From positions 1-31,902 of the forward strand of contig CAZSUX010000002.1 of NCBI GenBank assembly GCA_964610135.1: DNA of 31,902 nt. The letters are read 5' to 3'. The stretch is from an uncultured bacterium (lineage in GTDB: Bacteria > Hydrothermota > Tepidihabitantia > Tepidihabitantales > Tepidihabitantaceae). Below the pieces are notes generated by a model, which ran no database searches, was not told the origin of the DNA, and was given only the letters and a program-made list of their open reading frames with translations. A program made the position numbers and the translations under genes. Below, in pieces: positions 7,923 to 29,911 of this stretch (position 1 is its first letter; each line of letters begins with the position of its first letter).

Positions 7923-7924
7923 CC

Positions 7925-13209: not shown

Positions 13210-13215
13210 GGCACG

Positions 13216-16200
13216 ATGACCAGTGACCAGGTACCAGTGACCAGCCCCGAGCCGGCGAACGGGCCAGTCGGTGCAGTGCTGGTAGTGGGCTCGGGAATCG
13301 GCGGCATCCAGGCGGCGCTGGAACTGGGCGATGCCGGGTTCAAGGTCTACCTGCTCGACGAGGGGCCGGCCATCGGCGGCGTGATGGCGATGCTCGACAA
13401 GACCTTCCCGACCAACGACTGCTCGATGTGCATCCTGTCGCCGAAACTGGTCGGCACCGGCAGGCACCAGAACATCGAGCTCGTCAACTACAGCGAGCTC
13501 TTGAGCCTTGATGGCGAGCCCGGGCGGTTCAAGGCGAAGATTCGCCGGAAGCCGCGGTTCGTCCTCCTCGACAAGTGCACGGGTTGTATGGACTGCACCA
13601 AGGTCTGTCCGGTCGAGGTGCCGGACGAGTACAACCAGAAGCTGGCGATGCGCCGGGCGACCTATAAGCTCTACCCGCAGGCGATTCCCAATGCGGTAGC
13701 TATCGAGAAGAACGAAGGCAAGGCCCCGTGTCGGCTGGCCTGCCCATCCGGCGTCAACGCGCAGGGATACGTTGCGCTCATCTCGCAACGGAAGTTCAAG
13801 GAAGCCTACGAACTGGTGCGCGAGCGGTTGCCGTTCCCTGGCATCTGCGGTCGCGTCTGCCACCACCCGTGCGAGCAGGAGTGCAACCGCAAGGAGTACG
13901 AATCACCCGTTTCCATCCGGACCCTGAAGCGGTTCGCCGCCGACTACGTGTATTCCAACAAGATCGAATACCCCGTCATCAAAGCACCGGCAGCGGAACG
14001 CTCGGAGCAGGTCGCAGTAGTCGGGGCCGGCCCGGCCGGGCTTACCTGTGCGCTCGACCTGCGCGCCAAAGGCTACAAGGTGACCGTGTTTGATGCCACG
14101 GACAAGCCGGGCGGGATGATGCGCTGGGGCATTCCGGCGTACCGCCTGCCGCGCGAGACCCTTGACCGGGAAATCAAGGACATCACCGATACCGGCGTCG
14201 ATCTGAAGCTCAAGAGCCCGGTCAACGGGACCGCGGGCGTTCAGAACCTGCTCGGACAGGGGTTTTCTGCAGCGTTCGTCGCCCTCGGCTGCTCCAAGAG
14301 CCGGACCCTGAAGATTGACGGGATGGATCTTGATGGCGTGTTGCACGGCATCGAGTTCCTGCGCGACGTCAACGCCGGCAAGAAGCCGGCGGTCGGCAAG
14401 CGAGTCGTTGTCATCGGCGGCGGCAACGTCGCGGTTGACGTGGCGCTGTGCGCCCGACGGCTCGGCGCCGAGGACGTGACGATGACGTGCCTGGAGTGCC
14501 GCGAGGAAATGCCGGCCCACGAGTGGGAAATCTCCGACGCGACGGCCGAGGGTGTGAAGCTGAACCCCTCGTGGGGACCGCAGGCGGTTGCTGGTGAGAA
14601 CGGCAAGGTGACCGGACTCCGGACAATCGAGTGCACGCGGGTCTTCGATGACGCGCACAAGTTCAACCCGCAGTTCGGCTGCGTCGAGGGGTTTGTTCCT
14701 GCCGACACCGTTATCCTTGCCATCGGCCAGGCGGTGGATGCCGACGGGTTTGACGGGTTCGAGCGCGGACCGGGCGGTACGTTCAAGGTCAATCCGCTGA
14801 CATTTGAGACCACTCTGCCCGGTGTCTTCGCCGGCGGCGATATGGTTTCGGGACCGGCGTCGGTGATTGAGGCCGTGAATGCCGGCCACGAGGCCGCGAT
14901 TTCGATTGATCGGTTCATCAACCGGCAGGATCTGGCCGAAGGACGCGCGAAGCCGAAGGAACAGGCGGCCAAGGCCGAAGAGTCGGCAGCGGCCAGAGCG
15001 AAGATCGAGCGGCGCGAGCGTGCCGAGGAAGTTTCGTTGCCGGCAAGTGAGCGCGTCGCAGACTTCCGTGAAGTAGCGCAGGGTTTCACCGAAGAGCAGG
15101 CAGTCGCTGAGGCACAGCGCTGCCTGAACTGCGGCATCTGCTGCGAGTGCCTCCAGTGCGTCACCGCCTGCGAGGCGAAGGCAATCGACCACACGCAGAC
15201 CGCGTCCGAGGAGGAACTCGAAGTCGGTGCGGTCGTTCTTTCCGCCGGGTTCAAGGAGTACAAACCGACGGGTGAATACGGCTACGGTTACGGCCGGTAC
15301 CCGAACGTGGTGACCAGCCTCGAGTTTGAGCGCATACTCTCCGCCTCCGGGCCGTACGAAGGCCACGTGAAGCGGCCGAGCGACCTGACGCAGCCGAAGA
15401 AAGTCGCTTGGATTCAGTGTGTCGGTTCGCGCAACGCCGAGCACTACTATTGTTCGTCGGTCTGCTGCATGTACGCGACCAAGGAAGCGGTCATCGCCCG
15501 CGAGCACTGCGGCGGCAACCTCGACTGCCACGTCTACTACATGGACATGCGTTGCTTCGGCAAGGACTTTGAGAAGTATTACGACCGGGCGAAGGATGAG
15601 TACGGCGTCCAGTTCCGGCGATGCAAGGTGAGCGCGGTGCAGAGGAAGGGACAAAGGACGAGGGACGAAGGACAAAGCCCGGACGGGACCGACGAGGACC
15701 TTCTGATATCGTACGAGGATGAGGCGGGGACACTGCGCGAGGAGGAGTACGACATGGTCGTGGTCTCGACCGCGCTCGCGGCCAATCCGCGTGCGGTTGA
15801 GATGGCAAAGCGCATTGGCGTAGCCACCGACGACCAAGGGTTCGTGAAAACCGACCGGTTCGAACCGGTGCTGACCGACCGGCCCGGCGTCTACGCCTGC
15901 GGCGCGCTGGCTGAGCCGAAGGACATTCCCGAGACCGTGACCGAGGCGACCGGCGCGGCCGGCGCAGTAGCGGTTCTGCTCGCCCCGGCTCGCAACACGC
16001 TGGTCCGGCCCAAGGTGTACCCGCCGTTCCGTGACGTGTCGGGTGAGGAGCCGCGCATTGGCGTGTTTATCTGCAACTGCGGCATCAACATCGGCGGCGT
16101 GGTGAAGGTGCCGAGCGTGGTGGAGTACGCCCGCACGCTGCCGAACGTGGTTTTTGTCGACGAGAACCTTTTTACCTGCTCTCAGGACACGCAGCAGAAG

Positions 16201-17793
16201 ATCCGTACCGCTATCGAGGAACACAGGCTCAACCGCGTCGTTGTCGCGTCCTGCACGCCGCGGACGCACGAGCCGCTGTTCCAGGAAACGCTGGCCGAGG
16301 CCGGCCTGAACCCGTACTTGTTCGCGATGGCCAACATCCGTGACCAGTGCTCGTGGGTCCACATGCAGGAGCCGGACGAGGCGACCGAGAAATCGAAGGA
16401 GCTGGTTAGGATGGCGGTGGCCAACTCGCGACTGCTCCGTCCGCTCTCGTCATCGCCGCAGGCGATCGTTCAGAAGGCGCTTGTCATCGGTGGCGGGCTG
16501 GCCGGGATGACCTCGGCAATCGCGGTTGCCGACCAGGGATTTGAAACCTTCCTTGTCGAGAAGGGTGACCGACTGGGCGGCAACCTGCTCAACCTGAGAT
16601 ACACCGAGACCGGCGATGACTTGGTCAGCTACGTGGCACGGCTGGAGCAGCGGCTGAGGGCCCACCCGTTGGTGAAGGTCTTCACCGGCGCCGAGTTGAC
16701 TGCTGTCACGGGCTACGTTGGTAACTACAAAACGACGGTCCAGAGGGAAGGACAAAGGACGAAGAACGAAGGGCAGAGCCAGGACGGATCCGAGGTCATC
16801 GAACATGGCGTCTTCATCGTCGCCACCGGTGCGGAGGAGTACCGGCCGACCGAATTCCTCTACGGCAAGGACCCACGTGTCCTTACCCAGACTGAGTTTG
16901 AGCAAGTCCTCTCCGGTTCACCTTCACTTGATCCCTCGACCCCTCGACCTCTTGATCCCTCTTCTCTCAAGCACGTAGTGATGGTCCAGTGTGTCGGGTC
17001 GCGGGAGAAAGAGCATCCATGGTGTTCGCGCATTTGCTGCACCGAGGCGGTGAAGAACGCGCTCAAACTGAAGAGCATCAGCCCGAAGGCGAATGTCTAT
17101 GTTCTATATCGGGACATGCGTACCTACGGGTTCAAGGAGAAGCTGTACCGCGACGCGCGCGAGGCAGGTGTGATGTTCGTCCGATTCGACCCGGAGACGA
17201 AGCCGGAGGTGACGAGCGCCGACGGCCGGCTGCACGTGTCGGTGTACGACCCGGTACTGCAGCGCCGGCTCGGCATCAACGCCGACCTGCTGGTGCTGTC
17301 GGCCGGCGTGGTCCCGGCGAAGTCGAACCACGACATCGGGCAACTGCTCAAGGTCCCGCTCAACGAGGACGGTTTCTTCCTCGAAGCGCATATGAAACTC
17401 AGGCCGGTGGATTTCACGACCCGCGGCGTGTTCATGGCCGGCATGGCGCACAGCCCGCGCCGGATACCCGAGACCGTGGCTCAGGCGTACGCGGCCGCGG
17501 CGCGCGCCTGCTCGATAATCTCGCACAAGGAGCTTTCGACCGAGGCGGTCGTGGCCGAGGTGAACCCGCGTTGGTGTACGGGCTGCGGCATGTGCGAGGA
17601 GATTTGTCAGTACGAGGCGGTGCGGCTCAACCCCGTGACCGGTAAGTCCGAGGTGACGGCGGTGCTGTGCCAGGGCTGCGGCGCGTGCGCGGCCGCCTGT
17701 CCGTCGGAGGCGATAAAGCTCAAGGGCTTCGAGGCGAAGAATGTCATTTCGATGGTCGACGCGGCATTGGAAGGGTGTGGAATAGATGGCTAA
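13216..17793 (+). CDS. hdrA: HdrL-type large HdrA: two HdrA FAD modules plus a GltD/NfnB-like pyridine-nucleotide oxidoreductase insert
   Basis: GSGIGG and DKTFPTNDCSMC; insert CRLACP...GICGRVCHHPCEQECNR...GAGPAG...GGGNVAVD...GVFAGGD; YCSSVCCMY; internal GVFICNCG; second GGGLAG; WCSRICC; C-terminal ferredoxin. Confidence 0.9.
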   Translation: MTSDQVPVTSPEPANGPVGAVLVVGSGIGGIQAALELGDAGFKVYLLDEGPAIGGVMAMLDKTFPTNDCSMCILSPKLVGTGRHQNIELVNYSELLSLDGEPGRFKAKIRRKPRFVLLDKCTGCMDCTKVCPVEVPDEYNQKLAMRRATYKLYPQAIPNAVAIEKNEGKAPCRLACPSGVNAQGYVALISQRKFKEAYELVRERLPFPGICGRVCHHPCEQECNRKEYESPVSIRTLKRFAADYVYSNKIEYPVIKAPAAERSEQVAVVGAGPAGLTCALDLRAKGYKVTVFDATDKPGGMMRWGIPAYRLPRETLDREIKDITDTGVDLKLKSPVNGTAGVQNLLGQGFSAAFVALGCSKSRTLKIDGMDLDGVLHGIEFLRDVNAGKKPAVGKRVVVIGGGNVAVDVALCARRLGAEDVTMTCLECREEMPAHEWEISDATAEGVKLNPSWGPQAVAGENGKVTGLRTIECTRVFDDAHKFNPQFGCVEGFVPADTVILAIGQAVDADGFDGFERGPGGTFKVNPLTFETTLPGVFAGGDMVSGPASVIEAVNAGHEAAISIDRFINRQDLAEGRAKPKEQAAKAEESAAARAKIERRERAEEVSLPASERVADFREVAQGFTEEQAVAEAQRCLNCGICCECLQCVTACEAKAIDHTQTASEEELEVGAVVLSAGFKEYKPTGEYGYGYGRYPNVVTSLEFERILSASGPYEGHVKRPSDLTQPKKVAWIQCVGSRNAEHYYCSSVCCMYATKEAVIAREHCGGNLDCHVYYMDMRCFGKDFEKYYDRAKDEYGVQFRRCKVSAVQRKGQRTRDEGQSPDGTDEDLLISYEDEAGTLREEEYDMVVVSTALAANPRAVEMAKRIGVATDDQGFVKTDRFEPVLTDRPGVYACGALAEPKDIPETVTEATGAAGAVAVLLAPARNTLVRPKVYPPFRDVSGEEPRIGVFICNCGINIGGVVKVPSVVEYARTLPNVVFVDENLFTCSQDTQQKIRTAIEEHRLNRVVVASCTPRTHEPLFQETLAEAGLNPYLFAMANIRDQCSWVHMQEPDEATEKSKELVRMAVANSRLLRPLSSSPQAIVQKALVIGGGLAGMTSAIAVADQGFETFLVEKGDRLGGNLLNLRYTETGDDLVSYVARLEQRLRAHPLVKVFTGAELTAVTGYVGNYKTTVQREGQRTKNEGQSQDGSEVIEHGVFIVATGAEEYRPTEFLYGKDPRVLTQTEFEQVLSGSPSLDPSTPRPLDPSSLKHVVMVQCVGSREKEHPWCSRICCTEAVKNALKLKSISPKANVYVLYRDMRTYGFKEKLYRDAREAGVMFVRFDPETKPEVTSADGRLHVSVYDPVLQRRLGINADLLVLSAGVVPAKSNHDIGQLLKVPLNEDGFFLEAHMKLRPVDFTTRGVFMAGMAHSPRRIPETVAQAYAAAARACSIISHKELSTEAVVAEVNPRWCTGCGMCEEICQYEAVRLNPVTGKSEVTAVLCQGCGACAAACPSEAIKLKGFEAKNVISMVDAALEGCGIDG
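13217..13244. repeat. Heptamer array (4 units) forming the first codons of hdrL
   Basis: TGACCAG TGACCAG GTACCAG TGACCAG; translates as MTSDQVPVTS. Confidence 0.75.
15640..15692. repeat. 53-bp in-frame module, copy 1 (4 heptamers GGACRAR)
   Basis: CAGAGGAAG GGACAAA GGACGAG GGACGAA GGACAAA GCCCGGACGGGACCGA; peptide QRKGQRTRDEGQSPDGTD. Confidence 0.8.
16741..16793. repeat. 53-bp in-frame module, copy 2
   Basis: CAGAGGGAA GGACAAA GGACGAA GAACGAA GGGCAGA GCCAGGACGGATCCGA; 44/53 identical to 15640-15692; peptide QREGQRTKNEGQSQDGSE. Confidence 0.8.
16927..16958. repeat. Octamer array (4 units) in frame in hdrL
   Basis: CTTGATCC CTCGACCC CTCGACCT CTTGATCC; peptide LDPSTPRPLDP just before VVMVQCVG. 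Confidence 0.8.
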
Positions 17794-18208
17794 TTACGAA
17801 CCTAAGATTGTTGGATTTCTCTGCAACTGGTGCACTTATGCGGGGGCGGACCTCGCCGGCACGTCACGTATGCAGTACCCGCCGAATATGCGACCGATAC
17901 GGGTGATGTGCTCGGGTGCAGTCGACTCGGTGTACGTCCTGCGCGCCCTGCTCGAGGGCGCGGACGGTGTGTTTATTGGTGGCTGTCACCCCGGCGACTG
18001 CCACTACGTCTCGGGCAACTACAAGGCGCGGCGCCGGATGGTGCTGTTCAACTCGGTGATGCAGTCGCTCGGCCTCGAGTCCGACCGCGTCTGGCTGCGC
18101 TGGATTTCCGCGGCCGAGGGCCGGAAGTTCGCCGATACGGTTACCGAGATGACCGTCCACCTCCGCGAGAAGGGGCCGAGTGCCTTCAAAGAGAAGTGGG
18201 AAGTGTGA
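17786..18208 (+). CDS. mvhD: MvhD/FlxD-family [2Fe-2S] adaptor subunit
   Basis: FLCNWCTYAGAD, RVMCSG, GCHPGDCHY, WISAAEG. Confidence 0.92.
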   Translation: MANYEPKIVGFLCNWCTYAGADLAGTSRMQYPPNMRPIRVMCSGAVDSVYVLRALLEGADGVFIGGCHPGDCHYVSGNYKARRRMVLFNSVMQSLGLESDRVWLRWISAAEGRKFADTVTEMTVHLREKGPSAFKEKWEV

Positions 18209-18215
18209 GGGAGCG

Positions 18216-19334
18216 ATGAAGGGAACACTTAAGGTAGACGCGAAGAACCCCGAGGCGGCAATCCGCGGCCTGTTCGCGAAGTGGTTGAAGGACAGCAGGC
18301 TCTCCGCGATTCTCACGCCGGCGTATTCGGCAGCAGGCACCGCCACGATGGCGCTTGTCTCCGACCCGGAGAAGCTGGCCGAGGCCGCGCCGCTGATGCC
18401 GGCGATGGGCGTCAACTCGGCGTCAATCGTGGCCGAGATTGCCCGCGAGGCTTCCCCGAATGCGAAAGTCGGGTTGTTCCTGCGGCCGTGCGAGCTGCGG
18501 GCTGTAGTCGAGTTGATGAAGCTGAAGCAAGTAGTGCCCGACAGCCTCGTGCTCATCGGCGTTGACTGCCCGGGTACGTACAAGGCGGCCGGGTTCCGCG
18601 ACGTGCGCGGCAAGGACGCGGATTTCGACAACAAGCACGCGCTCGAACAGGCGGGCTATGCCGACAACGTGAACTTCCGGATGGGCTGCCAGCTCTGCGA
18701 GTATCCGAAGCCGCTCGTCTTCGACCTGAATGTCGGGTTCATCGGGATGGACGTCGACAAGGAGCTCTGGCTCGAGGCCGCCACTGACAAGGGCAAGGCG
18801 CTGCTCGAGGGAGTCGAACTGAAGGCGCAGGACGAACCGGAGAAGCGGAAGAAGGCGCTGGAGGGCCTGAGCGCCGGCCGGAAGGCGAAGACGGCCGCCC
18901 GTATCGAGGAACTGGACAAGGCAATGCTGGGACCGGACAAGCTCGTCGCGTACTTCGCTGACTGCCTCAACTGCCATAACTGCATGAAGGTCTGCCCGGT
19001 CTGCTATTGCCGAGAGTGCTTCTTCGATTCCGACACGTTCCAGCGCGACATCGGCGAGCACGTCCGTGTCTCCCTGCGCAAAGGCGCGACCCGGATGCCG
19101 TCCGAGACTCTTCTGTTCCATCTGACCCGTATGAACCATATGATGGCTTCGTGTGTGCAGTGCGGCATCTGCGAGGACTCGTGCCCGGTGACCATTGGCC
19201 TTGCTACTTTGTTCAAGAAGGTCTCGCAGAACGCACAGAAGGAGTTCGACTACGTGTCCGGGCGTAACCTGGATGAACCGCTGCCGCTGGCGACGTTCCG
19301 CGAGTCCGAATTCCTCAAGGTAGGGGAAGAATAG
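18216..19334 (+). CDS. FdhB/FrhB-related 4Fe-4S dicluster protein (FlxC-like paralog)
   Basis: RPCELRA, IGVDCPG, CQLCEYP, CLNCHNCMKVCPVCYCRECFF, FHLTRMNH, CVQCGICEDSCP. SD GAGGGA before ATG 18216. Confidence 0.8.
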   Translation: MKGTLKVDAKNPEAAIRGLFAKWLKDSRLSAILTPAYSAAGTATMALVSDPEKLAEAAPLMPAMGVNSASIVAEIAREASPNAKVGLFLRPCELRAVVELMKLKQVVPDSLVLIGVDCPGTYKAAGFRDVRGKDADFDNKHALEQAGYADNVNFRMGCQLCEYPKPLVFDLNVGFIGMDVDKELWLEAATDKGKALLEGVELKAQDEPEKRKKALEGLSAGRKAKTAARIEELDKAMLGPDKLVAYFADCLNCHNCMKVCPVCYCRECFFDSDTFQRDIGEHVRVSLRKGATRMPSETLLFHLTRMNHMMASCVQCGICEDSCPVTIGLATLFKKVSQNAQKEFDYVSGRNLDEPLPLATFRESEFLKVGEE

Positions 19335-19336
19335 GG

Positions 19337-20137
19337 ATGGAAGAGACAAAGGGACAAAGGGACAAAGTGGCTGGGAGTCCGACTTCTTCACTAGGTCCCT
19401 TGATTCCTCGATCCCTTGATCCCTCTTCCGCAGAACTGCTCGTCAACGACCTCGACACTGAGTTCAAGACCCGGCTGGCTGAGAAGTACGGCGACACTGG
19501 GTTCATGCACTGCTTTTCCTGCGGGTCGTGTTCGGCATCCTGCCCGGTGCGGAAGCTTGATGAGAAGTACAACCCGAGGCGCATCATCCGGATGGCGATA
19601 CTCGGTATGAAGGATGAAGTCTACAAGTCCGAGTTCGTCTGGATGTGCTCCTACCACACGACCTGCCTGAACCGCTGCCCCCAGAAGGTGAACATCGGCG
19701 AGGTGGCCGATGCGGTCTCGCGCATGGCGGAAGAGGAGCGCAAGCGGCCGGCTTCCCACAAGGGCAAGGTGACGCAGGCGGAGCGGGACCGGGACTTCAA
19801 GCAGCAGGTGATGAAGGCGGCCAGCAGCGTTTCGGCCTGTTTCACCTGCGGTTCCTGCACCGCGGTCTGCCCGGAGACGCTGTTCGACCCGGAGAAGGAC
19901 CCGCGGCGGTTCATCCGCAAGGTCAACCTCGGGTTGCGGGACGAGGCGCTGGCCGACGAATTCAAGGATATCTGCGCGATTCACTACCGCTGCATCTCGC
20001 GCTGCCCGCAGGGAGTGCAGATCAGCAAGATCATGAATGCCATCAAGCAGTGCGCAGTGGAAGATGGCCACAGCTACCCGGCGTCACTGGCGGCGCTTGA
20101 GAAAGCGGACCGGTCGAAGTCAGGTGCTAGAAGCTAG
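19337..20137 (+). CDS. Tandem (double) HdrC-like protein; second cluster motif of each domain is CxxHxxCxxxCP
   Basis: Domain 1 CFSCGSCSASCP / CSYHTTCLNRCP; domain 2 CFTCGSCTAVCP / CAIHYRCISRCP; NPRRIIR and DPRRFIR linkers as in HdrC. Confidence 0.8.
   Translation: MEETKGQRDKVAGSPTSSLGPLIPRSLDPSSAELLVNDLDTEFKTRLAEKYGDTGFMHCFSCGSCSASCPVRKLDEKYNPRRIIRMAILGMKDEVYKSEFVWMCSYHTTCLNRCPQKVNIGEVADAVSRMAEEERKRPASHKGKVTQAERDRDFKQQVMKAASSVSACFTCGSCTAVCPETLFDPEKDPRRFIRKVNLGLRDEALADEFKDICAIHYRCISRCPQGVQISKIMNAIKQCAVEDGHSYPASLAALEKADRSKSGARS
19343..19423. repeat. Imperfectly inverted pair of octamer arrays at the start of the tandem hdrC gene
   Basis: GAGACAAA GGGACAAA GGGACAAA (19343-19366), spacer, TAGGTCCC TTGATTCC TCGATCCC TTGATCCC (19392-19423). 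Confidence 0.75.
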
Positions 20138-20146
20138 AGCAAGCAC

Positions 20147-20548
20147 GTGACAGACGAAGCCAAAAGCCAAGAGCCAAAAGCCAAAAGTCAAAGCAGCGGA
20201 CCGGCTGACTTACGTGACAGGCTGCTTGATTTCGCTGCGAGTTGCTTGAAGCTTGGCGGTCGGCTGACGCGGACGACCCCGGGCCGGTATGTGGCCGGGC
20301 AGTTGATGCGTTCCAGCGCTTCTGCCGGGGCGAACTACATGGAGGCACGCGGCGCGGAGAGCCGCGCCGATTTCGTCCACAAGCTCCAGGTGGCACTCAA
20401 GGAAGCCAAGGAATCCCAGTACTGGCTCGCTCTCGTCGTCCGAGCGGAACTACTCAATCCCGGCTTTGTTCAGGTTCTGGCCGACGAAGCAGACGCTTTG
20501 GTTCGAATCCTCGCGAAGTCGGTCGTTACCGCCAAAGGACACAGATGA
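20147..20548 (+). CDS. Four-helix bundle protein (23S rRNA intervening-sequence protein / Avd-like family)
   Basis: DLRDRLLDFA...GQLMRSSASAGANYMEA...SRADFVHKLQVALKEAKESQYWL...EADALVRIL matches the family pattern QL.RS..S..AN..EA....S..DF..KL.I..KEA.E..YWL. Confidence 0.9.
   Translation: MTDEAKSQEPKAKSQSSGPADLRDRLLDFAASCLKLGGRLTRTTPGRYVAGQLMRSSASAGANYMEARGAESRADFVHKLQVALKEAKESQYWLALVVRAELLNPGFVQVLADEADALVRILAKSVVTAKGHR
20157..20191. repeat. Left heptamer array of the four-helix-bundle cassette
   Basis: AAGCCAA AAGCCAA GAGCCAA AAGCCAA AAGTCAA. Confidence 0.9.
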
Positions 20549-20553
20549 CGGTT

Positions 20554-20588
20554 TTGCGTCTTGGCTTTTGGCCTTTGGCTTTTAACTT
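20554..20588. repeat. Right (inverted) heptamer array of the four-helix-bundle cassette
   Basis: TTGCGTC TTGGCTT TTGGCCT TTGGCTT TTAACTT; TTGGCTT is the exact reverse complement of AAGCCAA. Confidence 0.9.
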
Positions 20589-20605
20589 GACTCCGGAGTT
20601 CCATC

Positions 20606-23600
20606 ATGCCTGAGCCTTCGACTGGCAAGATCGGTGCTGTATTGGTTGTCGGCGGAGGAATCGGTGGCGTGCAGTCTGCGCTCGACCTGGCCGATTCCGG
20701 CTACAAGGTCTATCTGGTTGACCGTGCACCAGCCATCGGCGGCATCATGGCGATGCTCGACAAGACCTTCCCGACCAACGACTGCTCCATGTGCATCCTC
20801 TCACCCAAGCTGGTCGCTGCCGGACGGCACAAGGACATCGAACTGATGACCCTGACCGAGGTGCTGGGAGTCGAGGGAGAGCCGGGCAACTTCAAGGTTC
20901 GGCTCAAGCGCCATGCCCGCTCAGTCGACCTGTCGAAATGCACCGGCTGCGGCGACTGCTTGACCAAGTGTCCGGTCAAAGACCTGCCGAACGAGTTTGA
21001 GGGCGGACTTTCGAATCGCCGCGCCATCTACCGTCTCTACGCGCAGGCAGTGCCGAACGCGCCGATGATTGACCGCGAGCATTGCCTGAAGTTCACCAAG
21101 GACAAGTGCGGTGCCTGCCAGAAGACGTGCAAGGCCGGCGCCATCGACTACGCTCAGCAGGATGAGGAGTTCACGGTCGAGGTCGGCTCAGTCGTGGTCG
21201 CCGCCGGCTCGAAGATAGCGCCGACCGCACTCCGGCCCGAGTACGGCCACGGCCGATACCCCAACGTCGTGTCCAGCCTCCAGTTCGAGCGGATCCTGTC
21301 TGCGTCCGGGCCATACGGCGGTCACGTCAAACGTCCGTCCGACGGCAAGGCGCCGAAGAAGGTCGCGTGGCTGCAGTGCGTCGGGTCGCGTGACGACTCA
21401 GTCGAGCGCGGTTATTGCTCGGCGATGTGCTGCATGTACGCAGTCAAAGAGGCGGTCATTACGAAGGAACACTCGAGCAATGTCGAGCCGACCGTCTTCT
21501 ACATGGACATGCGTTCGTACGGCAAGGACTTCGACAAGTACGTCGACCGGGCCGAGCAGCAGTATGGAGTCCGTCTGGTCCGCGCTCGCGTCCCGGAAAT
21601 CCGCGAGGACCCGGGTACGCACAACCTCACACTCCGCTACGCCTCGGACGGAGGCAGCTTTGCCGAGGAGTTTGAAATGGTCGTGCTCTCCTGCGGCTTC
21701 GTGCCGCCGCCCGAACTCGTGGACCTGGGCAAACGGCTCGACTTCGAGCTGGACAGATACGGGTTCGCCGCCACCGACGATTGGGCGCCCGCTCGGACGA
21801 GCCGCCCCGGCGTCAGTGTGGCCGGCAGTTTTGCCCAGCCGATGGCTATCCCGGAGACTGTGACCGGCGCGTCGGGAGCGGCCGCTGCGGCCGAGGAGAT
21901 TCTCGCGGCTGAGCGCGGCCGTTTGGTCGCAGTCAAGGAGATGGCGGCTGAGACCGACGTGCGCGGGGAGGCGCCGAGGATAGGCGTGTTCGTCTGCCAC
22001 TGCGGCATCAACATCGGCGGAGTCGTGCGCGTCCCGGAAGTCGTCGAGTTCGCCCGGACCCTGCCTCACGTGGCCTATGCCGAGGAGAACCTGTACTCAT
22101 GCTCGGGCGACACCCAGGACAAGATCAGGGACCGGATCCGCGAGCACCGGCTCAACCGGGTAGTGGTTGCTTCCTGCTCGCCTCGGACTCACGAGCCGCT
22201 GTTCCAGGCCACGGTCGCCGAGGCGGGTCTGAACCCGCACCTGTTCGCGATGACCAACATCCGCGACCAGTGCTCGTGGGTGCACATGAAGGAGCCGGAC
22301 AAGGCGACTGAGAAGTCCAAGGACCTGGTGAAGATGGCGGTCGCACGGGCCATGCGCCTGAAGGCGCTGCCCAAGGTCAAACTGCCCGTGACCAGAGCTG
22401 GATTGGTCGTCGGTGGCGGCATCGCCGGCATGACGGCGGCTCTGTCTTTGGCCGGAGAGGGATTCGATGCATTCCTGGTCGAGCAGGACAAAGAACTCGG
22501 CGGGAATGCCCGCAGCATCGCCCGTACCGTCGAGGGCGACGACGTGCAGAAGCGTTTGAAGGAACTGGCGGACAAGGTCACCAGCCATCCTCGCATCAAG
22601 ACGTTCCTCAATGCGCGCATCAAGGCGATAGACGGCTTTGTCGGCAACTACCAGACCACGCTTGAGGGTGAGGGCACCGTCCTGAAGCACGGAGTCGTGG
22701 TGGTGGCGACGGGCGCGCAATACCGCACACCGACCGAGTACTGCTACGGCCAGAGTTCTCGCATCGTGAGCCAGAAGGAACTGGAAGAGATGATCGAGGG
22801 GTCCAAGGGTCCACGGGTTGGCCTCAGCGGCCTCCGTCAGACGGCGCAGGGGGCCAGGCCTTCGGAGTCACCCGAACCCCGGAACCCCCGAACCCTGGAA
22901 CCCACCTCGCTTCGCTCGGTGGTCATGATCCAGTGCGTTGGGTCGCGCGAGGCTGACCGGCCCTACTGCTCGCGCATCTGCTGCACCGAAGCAGTGAAGA
23001 ACGCGCTGGCAATCAAGGAACTGAACCCCGAGACCGACGTCTGCGTCCTCTATCGCGACATCCGTACCTACGGCATGCGTGAGGAGTACTATCGGCAGGC
23101 GCGCGAGAAAGGTGTCGTCTTCATTCGCTTTGCGCCGGAGACCAAGCCCGATGTACGGGTCGTCGACGGCCGGCCGATTGTCACTGTCAACGACCCGATA
23201 CTGGGCCGGGAAATCGAACTTCAGCCGGATATCCTCGCGCTGTCGTCCGGAATCGTGCCGCAGTCCGGCTCCGAGGGACTGGCCCAGATGCTCAAGGTAC
23301 CGTTGAACAGCGATGGGTTTTTCCTCGAGGCCCATATGAAGCTGCGGCCGGTGGATTTCGCCACCGACGGTGTGTTCATGGCCGGGCTGTGCCACTTCCC
23401 CAAGTTCATCGACGAGGCTACTGCCCAGGCCCAGGCTGCTGCCAGCCGGGCCGCCACGATACTGTCCCGCGACACGCTCGATGCGGAAGCAACGGTAGCC
23501 AACGTGGACCCGGCCAAGTGCTCGGCCTGTCACATGTGCGAAGGGCTCTGTGCCTACCATGCCATCGAAGTGAAGGTCGTGAACGAACGCACCGGCAAGC

Positions 23601-23734
23601 AGGCCGCGGTCGTCAACGAAGCGATGTGCAAAGGCTGCGGCGCCTGCGCCGCCAACTGCCGCTCGCTGGCCATCGATATCCGCGGCTTCCAGTCCGATAA
23701 CATCAGCCGCGAAATCGCGGCGCTGCTGGACTAA
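20606..23734 (+). CDS. hdrA: HdrA-like protein with two FAD modules (no GltD insert)
   Basis: GGGIGG, DKTFPTNDCSMC, ferredoxin insert, YCSAMCCMY, internal GVFVCHCG, GGGIAG, YCSRICC, C-terminal CSACHMC/CKGCGAC; paralogous to 13216-17793. Confidence 0.92.
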   Translation: MPEPSTGKIGAVLVVGGGIGGVQSALDLADSGYKVYLVDRAPAIGGIMAMLDKTFPTNDCSMCILSPKLVAAGRHKDIELMTLTEVLGVEGEPGNFKVRLKRHARSVDLSKCTGCGDCLTKCPVKDLPNEFEGGLSNRRAIYRLYAQAVPNAPMIDREHCLKFTKDKCGACQKTCKAGAIDYAQQDEEFTVEVGSVVVAAGSKIAPTALRPEYGHGRYPNVVSSLQFERILSASGPYGGHVKRPSDGKAPKKVAWLQCVGSRDDSVERGYCSAMCCMYAVKEAVITKEHSSNVEPTVFYMDMRSYGKDFDKYVDRAEQQYGVRLVRARVPEIREDPGTHNLTLRYASDGGSFAEEFEMVVLSCGFVPPPELVDLGKRLDFELDRYGFAATDDWAPARTSRPGVSVAGSFAQPMAIPETVTGASGAAAAAEEILAAERGRLVAVKEMAAETDVRGEAPRIGVFVCHCGINIGGVVRVPEVVEFARTLPHVAYAEENLYSCSGDTQDKIRDRIREHRLNRVVVASCSPRTHEPLFQATVAEAGLNPHLFAMTNIRDQCSWVHMKEPDKATEKSKDLVKMAVARAMRLKALPKVKLPVTRAGLVVGGGIAGMTAALSLAGEGFDAFLVEQDKELGGNARSIARTVEGDDVQKRLKELADKVTSHPRIKTFLNARIKAIDGFVGNYQTTLEGEGTVLKHGVVVVATGAQYRTPTEYCYGQSSRIVSQKELEEMIEGSKGPRVGLSGLRQTAQGARPSESPEPRNPRTLEPTSLRSVVMIQCVGSREADRPYCSRICCTEAVKNALAIKELNPETDVCVLYRDIRTYGMREEYYRQAREKGVVFIRFAPETKPDVRVVDGRPIVTVNDPILGREIELQPDILALSSGIVPQSGSEGLAQMLKVPLNSDGFFLEAHMKLRPVDFATDGVFMAGLCHFPKFIDEATAQAQAAASRAATILSRDTLDAEATVANVDPAKCSACHMCEGLCAYHAIEVKVVNERTGKQAAVVNEAMCKGCGACAANCRSLAIDIRGFQSDNISREIAALLD
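22794..22902. repeat. Inverted pair of octamer arrays in frame in the third hdrA
   Basis: TCGAGGGG TCCAAGGG TCCACGGG (22794-22817), 53-nt spacer, CCCGAACC CCGGAACC CCCGAACC CTGGAACC (22871-22902). Confidence 0.8.
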
Positions 23735-23752
23735 ACGATGGGAGAATCGCAC

Positions 23753-24211
23753 ATGCCGGAAACTGCTGCGGCCGAGAAGGCAGTCGGCGGCGAATTCGAA
23801 CCCAAGATCGTGGCTTTTCTCTGCAACTGGTGTTCGTATGCCGGCGCCGACCTTGCCGGCATATCGCGCATCCAGTACCCGCCCAGCATCCGGGTCATTC
23901 GCGTTCCGTGCTCCGGTCGGGTTGACCCCTTCTATATCCTCAAGGCGCTGCAGAACGGCGCGGATGGCGTGCTCATCTCCGGCTGCCATCCCGGCGACTG
24001 CCACTACCTGACCGGAAACTATGTCGCCCGGCGCCGGTTCGCAGTCCTCAACGACCTGCTGGAGTTCGCCGGCATCGACCAGGGCCGGGTTAGCTTCTCC
24101 TGGGTTTCTGCTGCCGAAGGTGAACGGTTCGCGGAGGTCGTGCGCGACGTCACCGAGAAGGTCCGCCAACTCGGGCCGAACAAGAAGCTGCTGAGGGAGC
24201 CAATCGCGTGA
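23753..24211 (+). CDS. flxD: MvhD-like subunit of the Flx module
   Basis: FLCNWCSYAGAD, RVPCSG, GCHPGDCHY; first in the flxD-C-B-A order. SD GGAG 8 nt before ATG 23753 (alternative start 23738). Confidence 0.88.
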   Translation: MPETAAAEKAVGGEFEPKIVAFLCNWCSYAGADLAGISRIQYPPSIRVIRVPCSGRVDPFYILKALQNGADGVLISGCHPGDCHYLTGNYVARRRFAVLNDLLEFAGIDQGRVSFSWVSAAEGERFAEVVRDVTEKVRQLGPNKKLLREPIA

Positions 24212-25047
24212 GCCGCGAAGACCAACTCCGCAAGCGGGCCACGGAGTTGCTGGCGGGCAAGGAAGTCGTGATGGTTCTCGGCTATCGTGCGGGCAAGCGT
24301 CCCGGCACGGCCACACCCGCATTCGTCACCCGGCCGGAAGACGTCGATACGCTCATCTTCGACGACCGCTGCGGCCCCAACCTCGCCGCCTACCTTCCGC
24401 GCGTCAAGCACCGGGGCAAGATTGCCATCGTTGCCAAAGGCTGTGATTCGCGCTCAATCGTCTCCCTGCTCAAGGAGAAACAGGTTGACCGCGGGCAACT
24501 AGTGATTCTCGGAGTCGGCTGTGAAGGCGTGAAAGAGAACGGCCGCCTCAGCGATTCCTGCACGACCTGCGCTCACCCGAACCCGGTAATCTGCGACGAG
24601 ATGATAGGGGAGAAGGTGGCCGAGCGCGAGCCCGCTCCCAACCCGCTGGCCGACTTTGAGAAGCTCTCGCCGGACCAGCGCTGGCAGGCATTGATGGACG
24701 ACGTCTCGCGCTGCATCCGCTGCTATGCCTGCCGCCAGGTCTGCCCGAACTGCTATTGCCCTACCTGCTTTGTCGACGCCAACAGCCCGCAGTGGGTCGG
24801 CAAGACCACAGCCGGTTCGGACAACATGATGTTCCATCTGATGCGGGCGATGCACATGGCCGGTCGCTGCGTGGAGTGCGGTTCCTGCAGTCGCGGGTGC
24901 CCGATGGGTATCGACCTGATGAAGTTCAACCGTAAGGTGGCACATGTCGTGAAGGAGCGGTTCGGCGCTGTCGCGGGGTTGAATCCCGACGAACCACCGG
25001 CGCTTGCTGCCTTCGACCCGAACGACAAACAGGAGTTCATACGCTGA
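24208..25047 (+). CDS. flxC: 4Fe-4S dicluster protein FlxC
   Basis: KGCDSRS, CIRCYACRQVCPNCYCPTCF, FHLMRAMHMAGRCVECGSCSRGCP; gene order. Confidence 0.82.
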   Translation: MSREDQLRKRATELLAGKEVVMVLGYRAGKRPGTATPAFVTRPEDVDTLIFDDRCGPNLAAYLPRVKHRGKIAIVAKGCDSRSIVSLLKEKQVDRGQLVILGVGCEGVKENGRLSDSCTTCAHPNPVICDEMIGEKVAEREPAPNPLADFEKLSPDQRWQALMDDVSRCIRCYACRQVCPNCYCPTCFVDANSPQWVGKTTAGSDNMMFHLMRAMHMAGRCVECGSCSRGCPMGIDLMKFNRKVAHVVKERFGAVAGLNPDEPPALAAFDPNDKQEFIR

Positions 25048-25048
25048 C

Positions 25049-25116
25049 CATTGTAGATTGCGGATTGCAGATGGCAGATGGCAGAGTTCGGCGGCCGGCG
25101 TCTGGCGTTTGGAGCT
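25049..25116. repeat. Heptamer arrays filling the flxC-flxB intergenic gap
   Basis: CATTGTA GATTGCG GATTGCA GATGGCA GATGGCA (25049-25083), then CGGCGTC TGGCGTT TGGAGCT (25096-25116), which are only weakly complementary to the first array. Confidence 0.7.
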
Positions 25117-25120: not shown

Positions 25121-26140
25121 ATGACCCAACGCATCGTGACCGCCGCCGACCTCGACAGACTCGTGGCCGGCTGGACCAAGAGTGCCGTGGTCTACGCCCC
25201 GGTCAAGGTCAAAGACTGGACCGAGTTCCGCCGGGTTTCGTCATTGGCCGAAGCCGACTTCACCCAGGTGAACACCAAACTTTCCGCCCGGGGTCTTCTG
25301 TTCCCGCAGTGCGAGACCATGTTCCGGTTTGAGACAAGCCGGCCGGACAAGGCGGAGGAAGCCGACCAGCCTGAGGCGCAGGTCATCCTTGGCGTCCGTC
25401 CCTGCGACGCCGCGGGTATCGCCGTGCTCGACAAGTTCTTTGCCGGCCAGGGTGAGACCGATACCTTCTACCGGCGACGCCGTGAGAAGACGACGCTGGT
25501 TGGCCTAGCCTGCTCCGCTCCGGCCGACACCTGCTTCTGCTCTGCGGTCGGCGGCTCGCCGGCCGGAACGCGCGGGCTCGACCTCCTGCTCACCGACCTT
25601 GGCGGCCGTTACCTGGCCGAGCCGCTTACCGACAACGGCGAGGCGGCAGTGAAGGACTTGCCTGAGGCCGCTTCTGCCGACCTCGCGAAGAAGAAGGAAA
25701 TCGCTGACAAAGCCGCCGCTGCCATGGCCCAGCGCATCGATACCGGCAAGCTCAAGCAGTTGCTTGACTCGGCCGACAGCCATCCGGTGTGGGAAGACCT
25801 CAGTCTCGCCTGCGTCAATTGCGGTGCCTGCACCTTCGTCTGTCCCACCTGCCACTGCTTCGACATCACGGACGAGACGCGCAAAGGCAAAGGCGCCCGC
25901 CTTCGTGTCTGGGACACCTGCCAGTTCTGTCTCTACTCGCAGCACGCCTCCGGCCATAACCCGCGCCAGACCCATGTCTCTCGTTTCCGCAACCGGGCGA
26001 TGGACAAGTTCAAGTACACTGTCGATATGATTGGCGAAGTCTCGTGCGTCGGCTGCGGACGATGCGTTCGCGAGTGCCCGGAATCTATCGACATTCGCGA
26101 GACAGTCGAGACACTGATGACCGTGCTGCCGGAGAAATAG
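25121..26140 (+). CDS. flxB: AsrA/sulfhydrogenase-beta-like 4Fe-4S protein FlxB
   Basis: GVRPCDAAG, CFC...GGSP, CVNCGACTFVCPTCHCF, RVWDTC, CVGCGRCVRECP. Start ATG 25121. Confidence 0.85.
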   Translation: MTQRIVTAADLDRLVAGWTKSAVVYAPVKVKDWTEFRRVSSLAEADFTQVNTKLSARGLLFPQCETMFRFETSRPDKAEEADQPEAQVILGVRPCDAAGIAVLDKFFAGQGETDTFYRRRREKTTLVGLACSAPADTCFCSAVGGSPAGTRGLDLLLTDLGGRYLAEPLTDNGEAAVKDLPEAASADLAKKKEIADKAAAAMAQRIDTGKLKQLLDSADSHPVWEDLSLACVNCGACTFVCPTCHCFDITDETRKGKGARLRVWDTCQFCLYSQHASGHNPRQTHVSRFRNRAMDKFKYTVDMIGEVSCVGCGRCVRECPESIDIRETVETLMTVLPEK

Positions 26141-26983
26141 ATGGCGCGAAATCCATACGAGCCGATTTCAGTCAGAGTTGAGAAGGTCACCGTCGAGAAC
26201 GAGGCAAAGGACCTCAAGACCTTCGACCTTGCATTCACTGATCCCGAAGCGCGCAAGGCGTTCGACTTCACTCCCGGCCAGTTCGGGTTCCTCTCAATGA
26301 TGGGCGTTGGCGAGGCGCCGTTCGGCATCGCCTCGGCCCCATCCGAGGAACTGGTCAAGTACACGGTCAAGCGTGTCGGCAGCTTTACGACTTCGCTCCA
26401 CGAACTTGAGCCGGGCGCGGCCATCGGTATGCGCGGCCCCTGGGGTAACTCCTACCCGTTCGACCGGATGAAGGGGAAGGACATCGTCATCGTCTCCGGC
26501 GGCTTCTCGTTCACGACGCTGCGCTCGACCATTGTCTACCTCCTCGACCCAGCCCGCCGGTCCCAGTTCGGCAAGGTCACCGTGGTCTACGGTGCCCGTT
26601 CAGCGGGTGAGTTGCTCTACAAGGACGAGATCAAAGCGTGGGAGCTGAGTCCGGACCTTGCCCTGCATCTCTGCGTGGACCGGCTCGCCGGCGCATCCTG
26701 GCCCAAGACCGAAGGCCTTGTTCCGAACGTGCTCCAGCAGGTCGCGCCGTCGGCTGCGAATGCGGTTGCGCTCGTCTGCGGCCCGCCCGTCATGATTCGC
26801 TTCACCCATCCGGTTCTGGAGAAGCTCGGGTTCAAGCCTGAAGACGTTTTCCTTTCGCTTGAGAATCGAATGAAGTGCGGCATCGGCAAGTGCGGCCACT
26901 GCAACATCGGTCCCAAGTACGTCTGCAAAGACGGACCGGTTTTCAGCTACCAGGAGCTGCTCCGACTCCCGCCGGAGTACTAG
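26141..26983 (+). CDS. flxA: FAD/NAD(P)-binding oxidoreductase FlxA (AsrB / hydrogenase-gamma-like)
   Basis: FTPGQF, GEAPFGIAS, RGPWGN, SGGFS, YGARS, VCGPPVM, MKCGIGKCGHC...VCKDGPVF ([2Fe-2S]). Confidence 0.88.
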   Translation: MARNPYEPISVRVEKVTVENEAKDLKTFDLAFTDPEARKAFDFTPGQFGFLSMMGVGEAPFGIASAPSEELVKYTVKRVGSFTTSLHELEPGAAIGMRGPWGNSYPFDRMKGKDIVIVSGGFSFTTLRSTIVYLLDPARRSQFGKVTVVYGARSAGELLYKDEIKAWELSPDLALHLCVDRLAGASWPKTEGLVPNVLQQVAPSAANAVALVCGPPVMIRFTHPVLEKLGFKPEDVFLSLENRMKCGIGKCGHCNIGPKYVCKDGPVFSYQELLRLPPEY

Positions 26984-26993
26984 CCCTCCTGCG

Positions 26994-27245
26994 ATGTTGA
27001 CCGGCGCGCACTGGACAACCGCAAGGCTCGGTGATTGTCATCCCGGTGACTGTTGCTACAAGCGCATCGAGGTGCTTCGGGCGCTGATGAAGCAGCTCGG
27101 GGTCGAGGAGGCCCGGCTGCGCCTCGAGTGGATTCCGGTGGCCGAGGGCGTGGAGTTCGCCCGGGTCGTGCGCGACTACACCGAAGAGATACGGAAGCTG
27201 GGCCCGCTCGAGCTGAGGCGGGTCGCGATCGAGGACGAGACCTAG
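26994..27245 (+). pseudogene. mvhD: Truncated, degenerate mvhD relic
   Basis: Only the C-terminal half remains: DCHPGDCCYKRIEVL...RLRLEWIPVAEGVEFA. The FxCNWC and RVxCSG ligand segments are absent, and about 8 codons (GNYKAR region) are missing relative to the two intact paralogs. Confidence 0.75.
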
Positions 27246-27261
27246 GACGCATGGAGGTAAT

Positions 27262-28239
27262 GTGGCCGAGAAGCTGAAGTTCGGATTCTACTGGGCCGCC
27301 TCCTGCGGCGGCTGCGAAATCGCGGTGCTCGACACCAACGAGAAGATCCTCGACGTGGTGGCGGGCGCCGACATCCTGTTCTGGCCGGTGGCGATGGACA
27401 CCAAGTACGACGACGTCCGGGCGATGCCGGACGGGCACATGGACGTTTGCTTCTTCAACGGGTCGATCCGGAACTCTGAAGCGAAGGAGATCGCGCACCT
27501 GCTGCGCAGGAAGTCGAAGGTGCTCGTGGCGTTCGGCTCCTGCGCCCACCACGGGTGCATCCCGGGTCTCGCCAACCTGCACAATCGGGAAGAGGTGTTC
27601 GCCACCGTCTACCACAATGAGCCGGCGCTCGACGACTCGGCCGGGACCGAGCCGCAGACGAAGTTCCAGGCGCCGGAGGGTGAACTCACGCTGCCGAAGT
27701 TCTTCAACCACGTCTACCCGCTCGACCAGGTGGTCGACGTCGACTACTACCTGCCGGGCTGCCCGCCGCCGGTGCCGCTCATCCTCAACGCGGTGACCGC
27801 CATCTTCAAGGGCGAGCTGCCGCCCAAGGGCACGGTGCTCGCCCCGGTCAAGGCGCTGTGCGACGACTGCGTGCGCAACAAGCACGAGGCGAAGAAGATG
27901 CCGGACGTGAAGCGGACCTGGGAAATCAAGGCCGACCCGGAGAAGTGCTTCCTCGAGCAGGGCATCATTTGCATGGGCCCGGTGACGCGCTCGGGCTGCG
28001 AGACGCGGTGCATCAACGGCAATTCGCCGTGCACCGGGTGCATGGGTCCTACGCCCGAGGTTACGGACCAGGGCGCCAAGATGATATCGGCGCTCGGCTC
28101 GATCCTGGCGGTCGATGGCGAGAAGGAACTGGGTGACGAGGCGACGCAGGAACTGATGGCCAAGATCAAAGACCCGGTCGGTACCTTCTACATGTACGGC
28201 CTGGCGAGCGCAATCATCAAACACAAGCGAGGCAAGTAA
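27262..28239 (+). CDS. mvhG: [NiFe]-hydrogenase small subunit, group 3c
   Basis: ASCGGCE, GSCAHHGCIPGL, YLPGCPP, CDDC, CFLEQGIICMGPVTRSGC...C...PCTGCMG. Confidence 0.92.
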   Translation: MAEKLKFGFYWAASCGGCEIAVLDTNEKILDVVAGADILFWPVAMDTKYDDVRAMPDGHMDVCFFNGSIRNSEAKEIAHLLRRKSKVLVAFGSCAHHGCIPGLANLHNREEVFATVYHNEPALDDSAGTEPQTKFQAPEGELTLPKFFNHVYPLDQVVDVDYYLPGCPPPVPLILNAVTAIFKGELPPKGTVLAPVKALCDDCVRNKHEAKKMPDVKRTWEIKADPEKCFLEQGIICMGPVTRSGCETRCINGNSPCTGCMGPTPEVTDQGAKMISALGSILAVDGEKELGDEATQELMAKIKDPVGTFYMYGLASAIIKHKRGK

Positions 28240-29702: not shown

Positions 29703-29749
29703 CCCGCCGCCAAGGTAATCCTGCTCGACTAGCAGTACCTCAGACTCTT

Positions 29750-29785
29750 GCCGCCCCGGCCTTAGGGCCGGGGCGGCTGCTTTCT
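29750..29785 (+). terminator. Terminator hairpin ending the redox operon
   Basis: Perfect 12-bp stem GCCGCCCCGGCC-TTAG-GGCCGGGGCGGC followed by TGCTTTCT (weak U tract). Confidence 0.7.
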
Positions 29786-29817
29786 GACCTCGCAGCGAGG
29801 GTCTGCCCCTGCGTTCT

Positions 29818-29857: not shown

Positions 29858-29911
29858 TTTCGGCGGCCCGATTTGCCTAAGTTTCGCATTCTCAACCCGT
29901 GAATCTCTGGC

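Follow-up and report, generated by a model that had tools for sequence, protein, structure and literature searches.

For palindromic repeats lying in frame within conserved enzymes, Rickettsia provides the best documented case (PMC10969869). The Rickettsia palindromic elements (RPEs) are small, dispersed and found in frame in unrelated conserved genes, and the extra peptide is stated to be compatible with the protein fold (PMC10969869, citing Ogata et al.). Heptameric long simple sequence repeats (SSRs) are known as GGGAATC in Xanthomonas, GGGGAYT in Nostoc and TAACTGA in Beggiatoaceae (PMC4692102, PMC4679880), and repeat units that are not a multiple of three are reported to be rare in coding regions (PMC4679880). 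Repetitive extragenic palindromes (REPs) are extragenic, 20–40 bp long and carry a GTAG or CGTC head (PMC3733652). The present study concerns tandem arrays of 7- and 8-nt units in a 31,902-nt stretch of DNA from an uncultured bacterium (contig CAZSUX010000002.1; hereafter the window), which has a G + C content of ~63 % and harbours an hdr gene cluster. Two paralogous proteins encoded therein, HdrL and the third HdrA (HdrA3), carry such arrays in the same loop, and a third array belongs to an iron-sulfur (Fe-S) gene located between them. On balance, the arrays are probably copies of a dispersed, selfish or neutral hairpin-repeat element that is tolerated in a permissive loop and belongs to a lineage-wide family of 7/8-nt tandem units; the best reading of these three arrays is that one represents a complete and two represent degenerate or partial copies.

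When arrays were required to comprise four or more copies with a self-match of at least 80 % (strict test), five period-7 and two period-8 arrays were detected in the window, as compared to means of 0.007 and 0.003, respectively, in the 300 dinucleotide-preserving shuffles that provided the chance expectation; periods 6 and 9–11 yielded no array in the window under this test. Tandem Repeats Finder and our own scan delineated period-7 and period-8 arrays with 3–5 head-to-tail copies, and a looser scan retrieved 11–13 arrays, every one within 11.1–25.1 kb. The following arrays and associated segments were identified (L-numbers denote loci fetched from relatives, P-numbers protein homologs):

13217–13244, plus strand: array at the HdrL N-terminus, TGACCAG x4, encoding the first ten HdrL residues
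15647–15677, plus strand: hdrL site 1, in-frame G-rich period-7/14 array, AGGGACA AAGGACG ...
16747–16772, plus strand: hdrL site 2, in-frame G-rich heptamers GAAGGAC AAAGGAC GAAGAAC GAAGG
16927–16968, plus strand: hdrL site 3, four octamers CTYGAYCY and terminal CTCTTCTCTC, in frame as LDPSTPRPLDPSSL
19340–19371, plus strand: left arm of the Fe-S gene element, GAAGAGAC AAAGGGAC AAAGGGAC AAAGTGGC, family A
19392–19429, plus strand: right arm of the Fe-S gene element, CTTGATTC CTCGATCC CTTGATCC at 19399–19422, terminal CTCTTCC
22794–22818, plus strand: hdrA3 left array, G-rich GGGTCCAA GGGTCCAC GGGT, family B
22819–22870, plus strand: hdrA3 spacer, GC-rich, part of the tract 22786–22915 that is unalignable to L082
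22871–22903, plus strand: hdrA3 right array, C-rich CCCGAACC CCGGAACC CCCGAACC CTGGAACC C, family B
20154–20195, plus strand: 5' arm of the PF05635 cassette, AAGCCAA x5
20551–20589, plus strand: 3' arm of the PF05635 cassette, inverted TTGGCTT x3
25049–25116, plus strand: intergenic heptamer arrays, ATTGYRG x5 followed by GGCGKYY x3, between two Fe-S genes
11186–11214, plus strand: weak heptamer array directly after the hdrB stop codon

All 7/8-nt arrays of the window reside inside the hdr cluster (11186–25116); none was found at 1–11,000 or 25,200–31,902, though relatives possess arrays in upstream genes. The closest relatives in public databases are uncultured genomes that bear the label candidate division WOR-3, and the sequence is present in salt-marsh metagenome runs. 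Arrays were also found in L006, L007, L081 and metagenome contigs, and 74 distant loci (1.29 Mb) contained 7 period-8 and 49 period-7 arrays; octamer arrays are concentrated in the WOR-3-like lineage. The arrays are similar to the short tandemly repeated repetitive sequences (STRR) of cyanobacteria, and the TGACCAG unit at 13217–13244 resembles the STRR2 heptamer (TTGGTCA, reverse complement TGACCAA).

The sequence-only reading of the window had placed octamer arrays in the same loop of two HdrA paralogs, and both sites indeed correspond to the homologous linker that follows the TQxE(F/L)E helix and precedes the VVMxQCVGSR strand. The units are present as it had described them: the hdrL copy at 16927–16958 reads CTTGATCC CTCGACCC CTCGACCT CTTGATCC, followed by CTCTTCTCTC; the hdrA3 arms read TCGAGGGGTCCAAGGGTCCACGGGT at 22794–22818 and the C-rich octamers at 22871–22903, 52–53 nt apart; and the third four-unit array (19392–19423) reads TAGGTCCC TTGATTCC TCGATCCC TTGATCCC and has CTTGATCCCTCTTC in common with the hdrL copy (19415–19428 and 16950–16963, respectively). 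Overlooked were the left arm of this third array (19340–19371) and three more arrays in hdrL. The hdrA3 allele is matched, with 0–1 differences, by contigs of three independent salt-marsh runs covering 22400–23047, 22776–22926 and 22756–22910, and is, therefore, not an assembly artefact.

Membership in the HdrA family is evident from Pfam hits, the FAD-binding Rossmann fold and the QCxGSR...C..CC cluster motif, and solved HdrA structures (PDB 8rvu/5odc) match with E of about 1e-69 and align on both sides of the insert. The three HdrA-type proteins contain five QCxGSR motifs in total. Arrays occur only in the two C-terminal-type domains, and the three canonical, conserved SASGPxxGxVKRPSD (SASGP...RPSD) loops carry none. 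An AlphaFold2 model of HdrA3 (71-sequence alignment; predicted local distance difference test score, pLDDT, 86.7; predicted template modelling score, pTM, 0.88) predicts the insert to be disordered between confident structural elements: of the array-encoded residues 730–766, residues 736–762 have a pLDDT <50, flanked by a confident helix (723–734) and strand (771–778). Arrays inside genes are translated as such a disordered, low-complexity loop. In the CTYGATCC units, YGA is CGA in all 13 in-frame cases (TGA in 0/13) and TGA in 18 of 36 out-of-frame cases.

The 120 orthologs with which HdrA3 was compared share 52–95 % identity. Most of them, including all readable ones below about 66 % identity as well as P0017, P0019, P0022–24 and others of the close clade, possess a native loop of 15 residues, e.g., EIIARNPQVLQGLNT. 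Further members of the close clade harbour a degenerate heptamer state of 18 residues (SGNRQSPLAIRQLQS; seen at the DNA level in L090), 34-residue family-A inserts (KGQRDKG...LDPSIPRSLDPSS), 34-residue family-C inserts (GSRGQGVEG...LESSNPGILDPSS) or, in L001, an ATTGCAG/CTGCAAT heptamer hairpin, next to the 44-residue family-B insert of the window. At least five types of inserts spanning 18–44 residues are thus opposed to the native 15, and in a neighbour-joining tree from which the loop was masked out, inserted alleles are intermingled with native ones. Since the inserted alleles lost the native codons, several independent replacements, or allele transfers, are required. The earlier proposal of an insertion hot spot stands in light of the short native loop in outgroups and several close relatives of the diverse arrays located exactly there, and of a different array type at this position in L082, the flanks of which are 96.7 % identical; the HdrA loop is probably a permissive hot spot, with the array serving no need of the enzyme. 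In L090 (23,075 nt, about 89–90 % protein identity, same operon) no 7/8-nt array reached the scan threshold, so array load differs sharply between sister lineages.

Four orthologs of HdrL/HdrA with about 52–58 % identity (P0209, P0076, P0199 and P0205) possess 7-residue-periodic low-complexity inserts in the same loop, e.g., SRPQTPDSRPQTQ and ATCNLQLATCNS. Their protein sequences suggest that heptamer arrays at the HdrA loop may extend well outside the WOR-3-like clade.

Relative to outgroups, HdrL contains four lineage-specific insertion places (N-terminus and sites 1, 2 and 3), each marked by an array. The native AMLHESPDKAMELKH is retained at site 3 by the nearest homolog (L081/P0121, 92 %) and by many others, the window shares a half-element allele with P0122, P0126, P0128 and P0134, and L006 holds a complete family-C hairpin. 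Unit type and even period vary by genome at sites 1 and 2: the site 1 array, a 12-residue insert compared to outgroups, is replaced by octamer arrays in L007 and L081, and site 2 carries GGGTTCAG octamers in L007 and no array in L006. Overall, L081 (88 % identical) is devoid of the hdrL site-3 insert, the Fe-S gene element and the PF05635 cassette.

The octamers follow a consensus of about GGGWYCRR and typically form a G-rich array, a short apex and an inverted C-rich array, together 40–110 nt long with a variable number of units. Family A is defined by GGGACAAA...YTYGATCC, the apex AAAGTG...CACT and the termini GGAAGAG/CTCTTCC, and occurs at the Fe-S gene start of the window, in the HdrA3 loops of L082 and L006, and at a valyl-tRNA synthetase (ValRS) site of L007. 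The hdrL site-3 copy retains the apex-proximal CACTTGATCC and the terminal CCCTCTTC of this family and has the appearance of a family-A right half, i.e., the C-rich arm only. When metagenomes were searched for the pattern of the family-A hairpin, 7 contigs were retrieved, in all of which the element is in frame in a long sense open reading frame (ORF) with the G-rich arm first; these encode ValRS (same site), another HdrA (same loop) and five unrelated proteins. Apex and termini recur in the aligned copies and were not imposed by the search. The hdrA3 arms of the window match the family-B elements in ValRS of L006. At one and the same ValRS position, L006 possesses a family-B hairpin (4715–4805) and L007 a family-A hairpin (1228–1325), and the window contains merely a 17-nt palindrome, GCAGGAGTCAATCCTGC (6335–6351). 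Further ValRS inserts at other sites were observed in L006 (hairpin) and L007 (heptamer array). In runs X1 and X3, a second locus with a family-B hairpin matches 22869–22903, flanked by GGGAGCCAAGGGTTCTGGGGTCAGGCCGGA before the C-rich arm and TACTGCTTTGTCATTCGTCATTTCC after it.

The native, inter-cistronic start region of the Fe-S gene has given way to the element, which provides the ATG (19337; region 19329–19345) from which the array at 19392–19423 is read. L081 and L006 lack this element, and their start is likely a TTG a few bases past the upstream stop codon, judging from the sequence. Comparison of filled with empty sites in three cases (hdrL site 3, ValRS and the start of the Fe-S gene) revealed no target-site duplication; in the two cases with delimitable boundaries, 16–17 nt of native sequence are replaced by the element. 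The termini GGAAGAG...CTCTTCC and GGAAGGGATG...CATCCCTTTCC pair in predicted folds as terminal inverted repeats. Overall, the elements are dispersed, reside at gene junctions and in frame in conserved enzymes, take the place of about 15–17 nt of native sequence, and differ between very close relatives.

In their behaviour, as distinct from their sequence, these elements resemble RPEs, given that copies lie in frame in HdrL, HdrA3 and ValRS as well as in five or more further ORFs, and given the intact reading frames and the undisturbed fold in the AlphaFold2 model. RPEs, in contrast, measure about 150 bp and are conserved both in their family consensus and in their peptide, whereas the elements described here are 40–110 nt long, consist of tandem 7/8-nt units whose type switches at a given site, and occur in a WOR-3-like host; a palindromic fold is apparent in compact copies but not in those of the two HdrA loops of the window. 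Like these elements, heptameric long SSRs consist of tandem 7-nt units, are dispersed and over-represented, and vary between close relatives; some form inverted pairs, and G-rich units among them resemble GGGWYCRR (PMC4692102, PMC4679880). Those repeats are overwhelmingly intergenic, whereas here hdrL site 3, the hdrA3 loop and three further hdrL arrays lie within ORFs of essential enzymes, octamers are prominent, and conserved apex and termini are reminiscent of a discrete element. [quoted passage not shown] REPs and bacterial interspersed mosaic elements (BIMEs), mobilized by REP-associated tyrosine transposases (RAYTs), are also short imperfect palindromes, very abundant and free of target-site duplications, but no copy examined here carries a GTAG or CGTC head, many are intragenic, and no RAYT gene was seen.

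A dispersed element of this kind could spread or be exchanged at the DNA level by copying or recombination, its arms growing, shrinking and homogenizing via slipped-strand mispairing or gene conversion. Selection would act as a filter only, admitting an in-frame total length, no in-frame stop and unconstrained surface loops, and would also keep the G-rich arm first on the sense strand, so that hydrophilic residues (K/G/Q/R/D and L/D/P/S) result. The permissive nature of the loop before VVMxQCVGSR would explain why arrays continue to be acquired there in both paralogs and in orthologs of other phyla, and the inserts would have no role in Hdr catalysis. The alternative of an ancestral hairpin eroded to different extents, raised by the sequence-only reading, holds in a narrow sense only: the hdrL copy looks like a half element and whole-unit copy changes occur between relatives, but the inserts of the two paralogs belong to different unit families, are lineage-specific and do not derive from a common ancestral hairpin. 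The insert is situated directly N-terminal to the Cys-rich cluster motif, but this proximity appears incidental, as the same elements occur in ValRS, in other proteins and in intergenic regions, and the three canonical versions of the loop are array-free.

Several points weigh against a mobile element. Mobility is deduced from the distribution only, given that neither a transposase nor a target-site duplication nor an excision product was identified. The neighbour-joining tree is crude and was built without a recombination test, and recombination of alleles between lineages could account for different families at one site. The metagenome pattern fixed both arms, so apex and ORF context alone are independent. 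The stop-codon test is partly circular, because it used ORFs chosen for being open across the element. Neither HdrA copy of the window folds better than shuffles, the link of the octamer families to PF05635 genes is indirect with heptamer-armed cassettes alone observed, and a function of the disordered loop or its RNA may be compatible with the sequence evidence.

Homologous recombination could have shuffled existing loop alleles among related strains, with no hot spot for new insertion. The comparison with L082, which forms one genome bin with L005, bears on this. The two loci share 96.7 % identity over 5,084 nt upstream and 94.0 % over the next 896 nt downstream, and enclose 130 nt in the window (22786–22915) that are unalignable to the 100 nt of L082, a family-A hairpin. 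As the unalignable tract reaches flanking native codons (EEMIEG vs EQVLEG; TSLRS vs SSLQS), this difference hints at recombination. The equal length of 34 residues of the family-A and family-C alleles of HdrA3 and the common apex GT(G/T)GC(G/T)GACAC of the L006 and L007 ValRS elements, despite different arms, point in the same direction. Nested native alleles, however, still need several independent replacements, since there is no way back to a native loop once it is lost; 7-residue-periodic inserts are present at the same loop in orthologs from other phyla (P0209, P0076); and recombination accounts for the spread of alleles, not for their origin. As the entire explanation we regard it as possible, albeit with clearly less than even prospects.

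In-place replication slippage of local sequence would render the arrays ordinary long SSRs with nothing mobile, the loop merely tolerating length change. Heptamers are reported to be more abundant than any other class of long SSRs in the majority of bacterial genomes and are ascribed to slippage of the polymerase (PMC4679880 and PMC4692102, both summarizing Mrazek 2007). Such slippage would agree with the unit count at hdrL site 3, which differs by whole units between the window (4) and L007 (1), i.e., by 24 nt, and with the alternation of periods 7 and 8 at one hdrL site across genomes. Yet it is an unlikely source of unit families, apex AAAGTG...CACT and termini that recur at unrelated genes and in unrelated genomes, of G-rich arrays paired with inverted C-rich ones, of inserts that replaced native codons rather than duplicating them, and of wholly different arrays enclosed by 96.7 %-identical flanks. 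As regards contingency loci, the tracts are short (4 units) and degenerate, the 24-nt allele difference keeps the frame, and the run depth of 2–4x is too low for minor alleles.

Selection for a role at the nucleic-acid level would invoke mRNA hairpins (stability, RNase III processing or translational pausing between domains) or G-quadruplexes (G4). Compact paired copies indeed fold better than dinucleotide shuffles, with z from -2.6 to -4.2 in 6 of the 9 paired copies tested: the Fe-S gene pair 19340–19371/19392–19423 (75–85 % complementary; -2.62), ValRS of L007 (-3.69) and L006 (-3.80), HdrA3 of L082 (-3.52) and L001 (-4.03), and the L006 intergenic copy (-4.21); weaker values were obtained for L006 HdrA3 (-1.85) and L006 ValRS site 1 (-0.92). 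Moreover, many copies are located at gene junctions of one operon, a canonical G4 motif (four or more G3+ tracts, 1–7-nt loops) occurs in the 31.9 kb only on the minus strand of 22871–22903, and similar GGGAATC repeats form G4 in vitro (PMC4692102). The HdrA copies of the window do not conform. The sequence-only reading had assigned a full hairpin to hdrA3, which is not borne out: an inverted-repeat search of 22780–22920 found none, the arms of opposite G-rich/C-rich polarity are out of register, and 22786–22915 folds no better than shuffles (RNA z -0.19, DNA z -0.65). The 52-nt spacer matched none of the fetched sequences, and the search for its origin gave nothing. The hdrL half-site displays no fold signal either (z +0.61), and long-range pairing of hdrL 16747 with 16927 was ruled out (z -0.23). 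Neither strand is consistently favoured in folding. G4 formation was rejected as a unifying feature, as only one array fits the motif, and heptamer families such as AAGCCAA, ATTGCAG and TGACCAG are devoid of G tracts. Close relatives differ in whether arrays are present, L090 being array-free over 23 kb, and Rfam searches of the window gave no matches, with no known RNA families, rRNA or tRNAs found. Taken together, a selected nucleic-acid function appears quite doubtful.

An adaptive flexible, charged linker tuning HdrA interactions or electron bifurcation near [4Fe-4S]/FAD is highly improbable, despite its location directly N-terminal to the cluster-binding CxGSR...C..CC motif and a consistent composition (G-rich arms encoding basic, C-rich arms acidic/proline residues), considering that peptides are wholly different between orthologs while the DNA periodicity persists, nearest relatives retain the short native loop, the pLDDT is <50, and the same element occurs in ValRS and unrelated proteins.

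Returning to a dispersed hairpin-repeat element as the favoured explanation, a potential ORF-bearing form is provided by genes of the four-helix-bundle family PF05635 ('23S rRNA intervening sequence protein'). The window contains one such gene (E = 5.6e-14) between the Fe-S gene and hdrA3, with arms AAGCCAA x5 and TTGGCTT x3 that are 81–90 % complementary, the 5' array being read as an N-terminal extension. Inverted tandem heptamer arrays flank the PF05635 gene in 7 of the 8 cassettes examined, in more than one phylum (WOR-3-like, Dehalococcoidia). Cassettes bounded in this way include:

window 20147–20589: cassette of the hdr cluster
L092:3001–3462: arms AAGYCAA/TTGGCTT
L098:1724–2165: ATTGCAG-type arms, at another junction of the same operon
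L100:3001–3470: ATTGCAG-type arms, at this other junction as well
L101:1390–1970: different, low-G + C genomic context, repeat arrays on both sides
L103:1440–1890: Dehalococcoidia (L103/L104), between hrcA and grpE

The sole exception is L007, the cassette of which is flanked by GAAGCTAGA...TCTAGCTTC rather than by heptamer arrays. Upstream of its PF05635 gene, at L007:15890–16075, a ~100-nt direct duplication of the 3' end of the Fe-S gene was observed. Among 96 PF05635 homologs with recognizable core, 43 possess an N-terminal extension of at least 12 residues, 25 of these 43 with 7-residue periodicity; array-encoded N-terminal peptides such as KSQEPKAKSQ, CRLQNADCRM and MQNCRK are common. 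No octamer-armed cassette was found, and the N-termini of 120 homologs display heptamer periodicity only.

Between hdrL and mvhD, L006 contains an ORF-less heptamer hairpin (L006:16715–16810), the right half of which, with the non-repeat CGGTTTTGCGT included, aligns to the 3' termini of PF05635 cassettes; the sense fold of this hairpin uses G-U pairs (z -4.21) and the other strand folds much more weakly. Furthermore, ATTGCAG/CTGCAAT units are common to the L001 HdrA3 loop and the L098/L100 cassette arms. Because the heptamer-armed versions share cassette ends, small hairpins may be ORF-less derivatives of PF05635 cassettes; a parent of the octamer families was not seen. Tentatively, and at this stage as one possibility with less than even prospects, PF05635 genes might constitute the ORF-bearing form of a hitherto undescribed class of hairpin cassettes with inverted heptamer or octamer arms that insert into transcribed operons of several phyla, the HdrA-loop octamers would be among their ORF-less derivatives, which would settle at gene junctions and even in coding sequence with in-frame readthrough, and the PF05635 protein would recognize or mobilize the arrays. 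To our knowledge, PF05635 is not a known transposase. Intervening sequences of 23S rRNA genes that carry an S23p/PF05635 ORF are similar in that the ORF is bounded by stem-forming inverted repeats, but the present cassettes reside between protein-coding operon genes (hdr cluster; hrcA-grpE) rather than in rRNA, and their stems consist of tandem heptamers. A search of the accessible literature retrieved no paper joining PF05635 genes to heptamer arrays, and the association may be new.

The gene setting of the arrays in the window is as follows:

9936–10331: hdrC
10328–11188: hdrB
ending at 13209: first hdrA
13216–17793: hdrL, encoding a 1,525-aa NfnB/GltD-HdrA fusion
downstream of hdrL: mvhD, then an FrhB-like gene
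19337–20137: Fe-S gene
20147–20548: PF05635 '23S rRNA intervening sequence protein' gene
20606–23734: hdrA3, encoding a 1,042-aa double HdrA, followed by mvhD and further Fe-S genes

The lineage bends two rules, as it harbours in-frame palindromic repeats outside Rickettsia and 7–8-nt repeats within coding sequence. Non-triplet units are retained in essential enzymes because no configurations survive other than those neutral to the frame and free of stop codons. The element serves as a natural guide to the permissive loops of HdrA, HdrL and ValRS, and it calls for caution in the annotation and alignment of metagenomic Hdr paralogs, since loop length variants of 3–29 residues represent repeat insertions rather than functional signatures. 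If the link to PF05635 is true, it would offer a testable genomic context for a widespread and enigmatic protein family.

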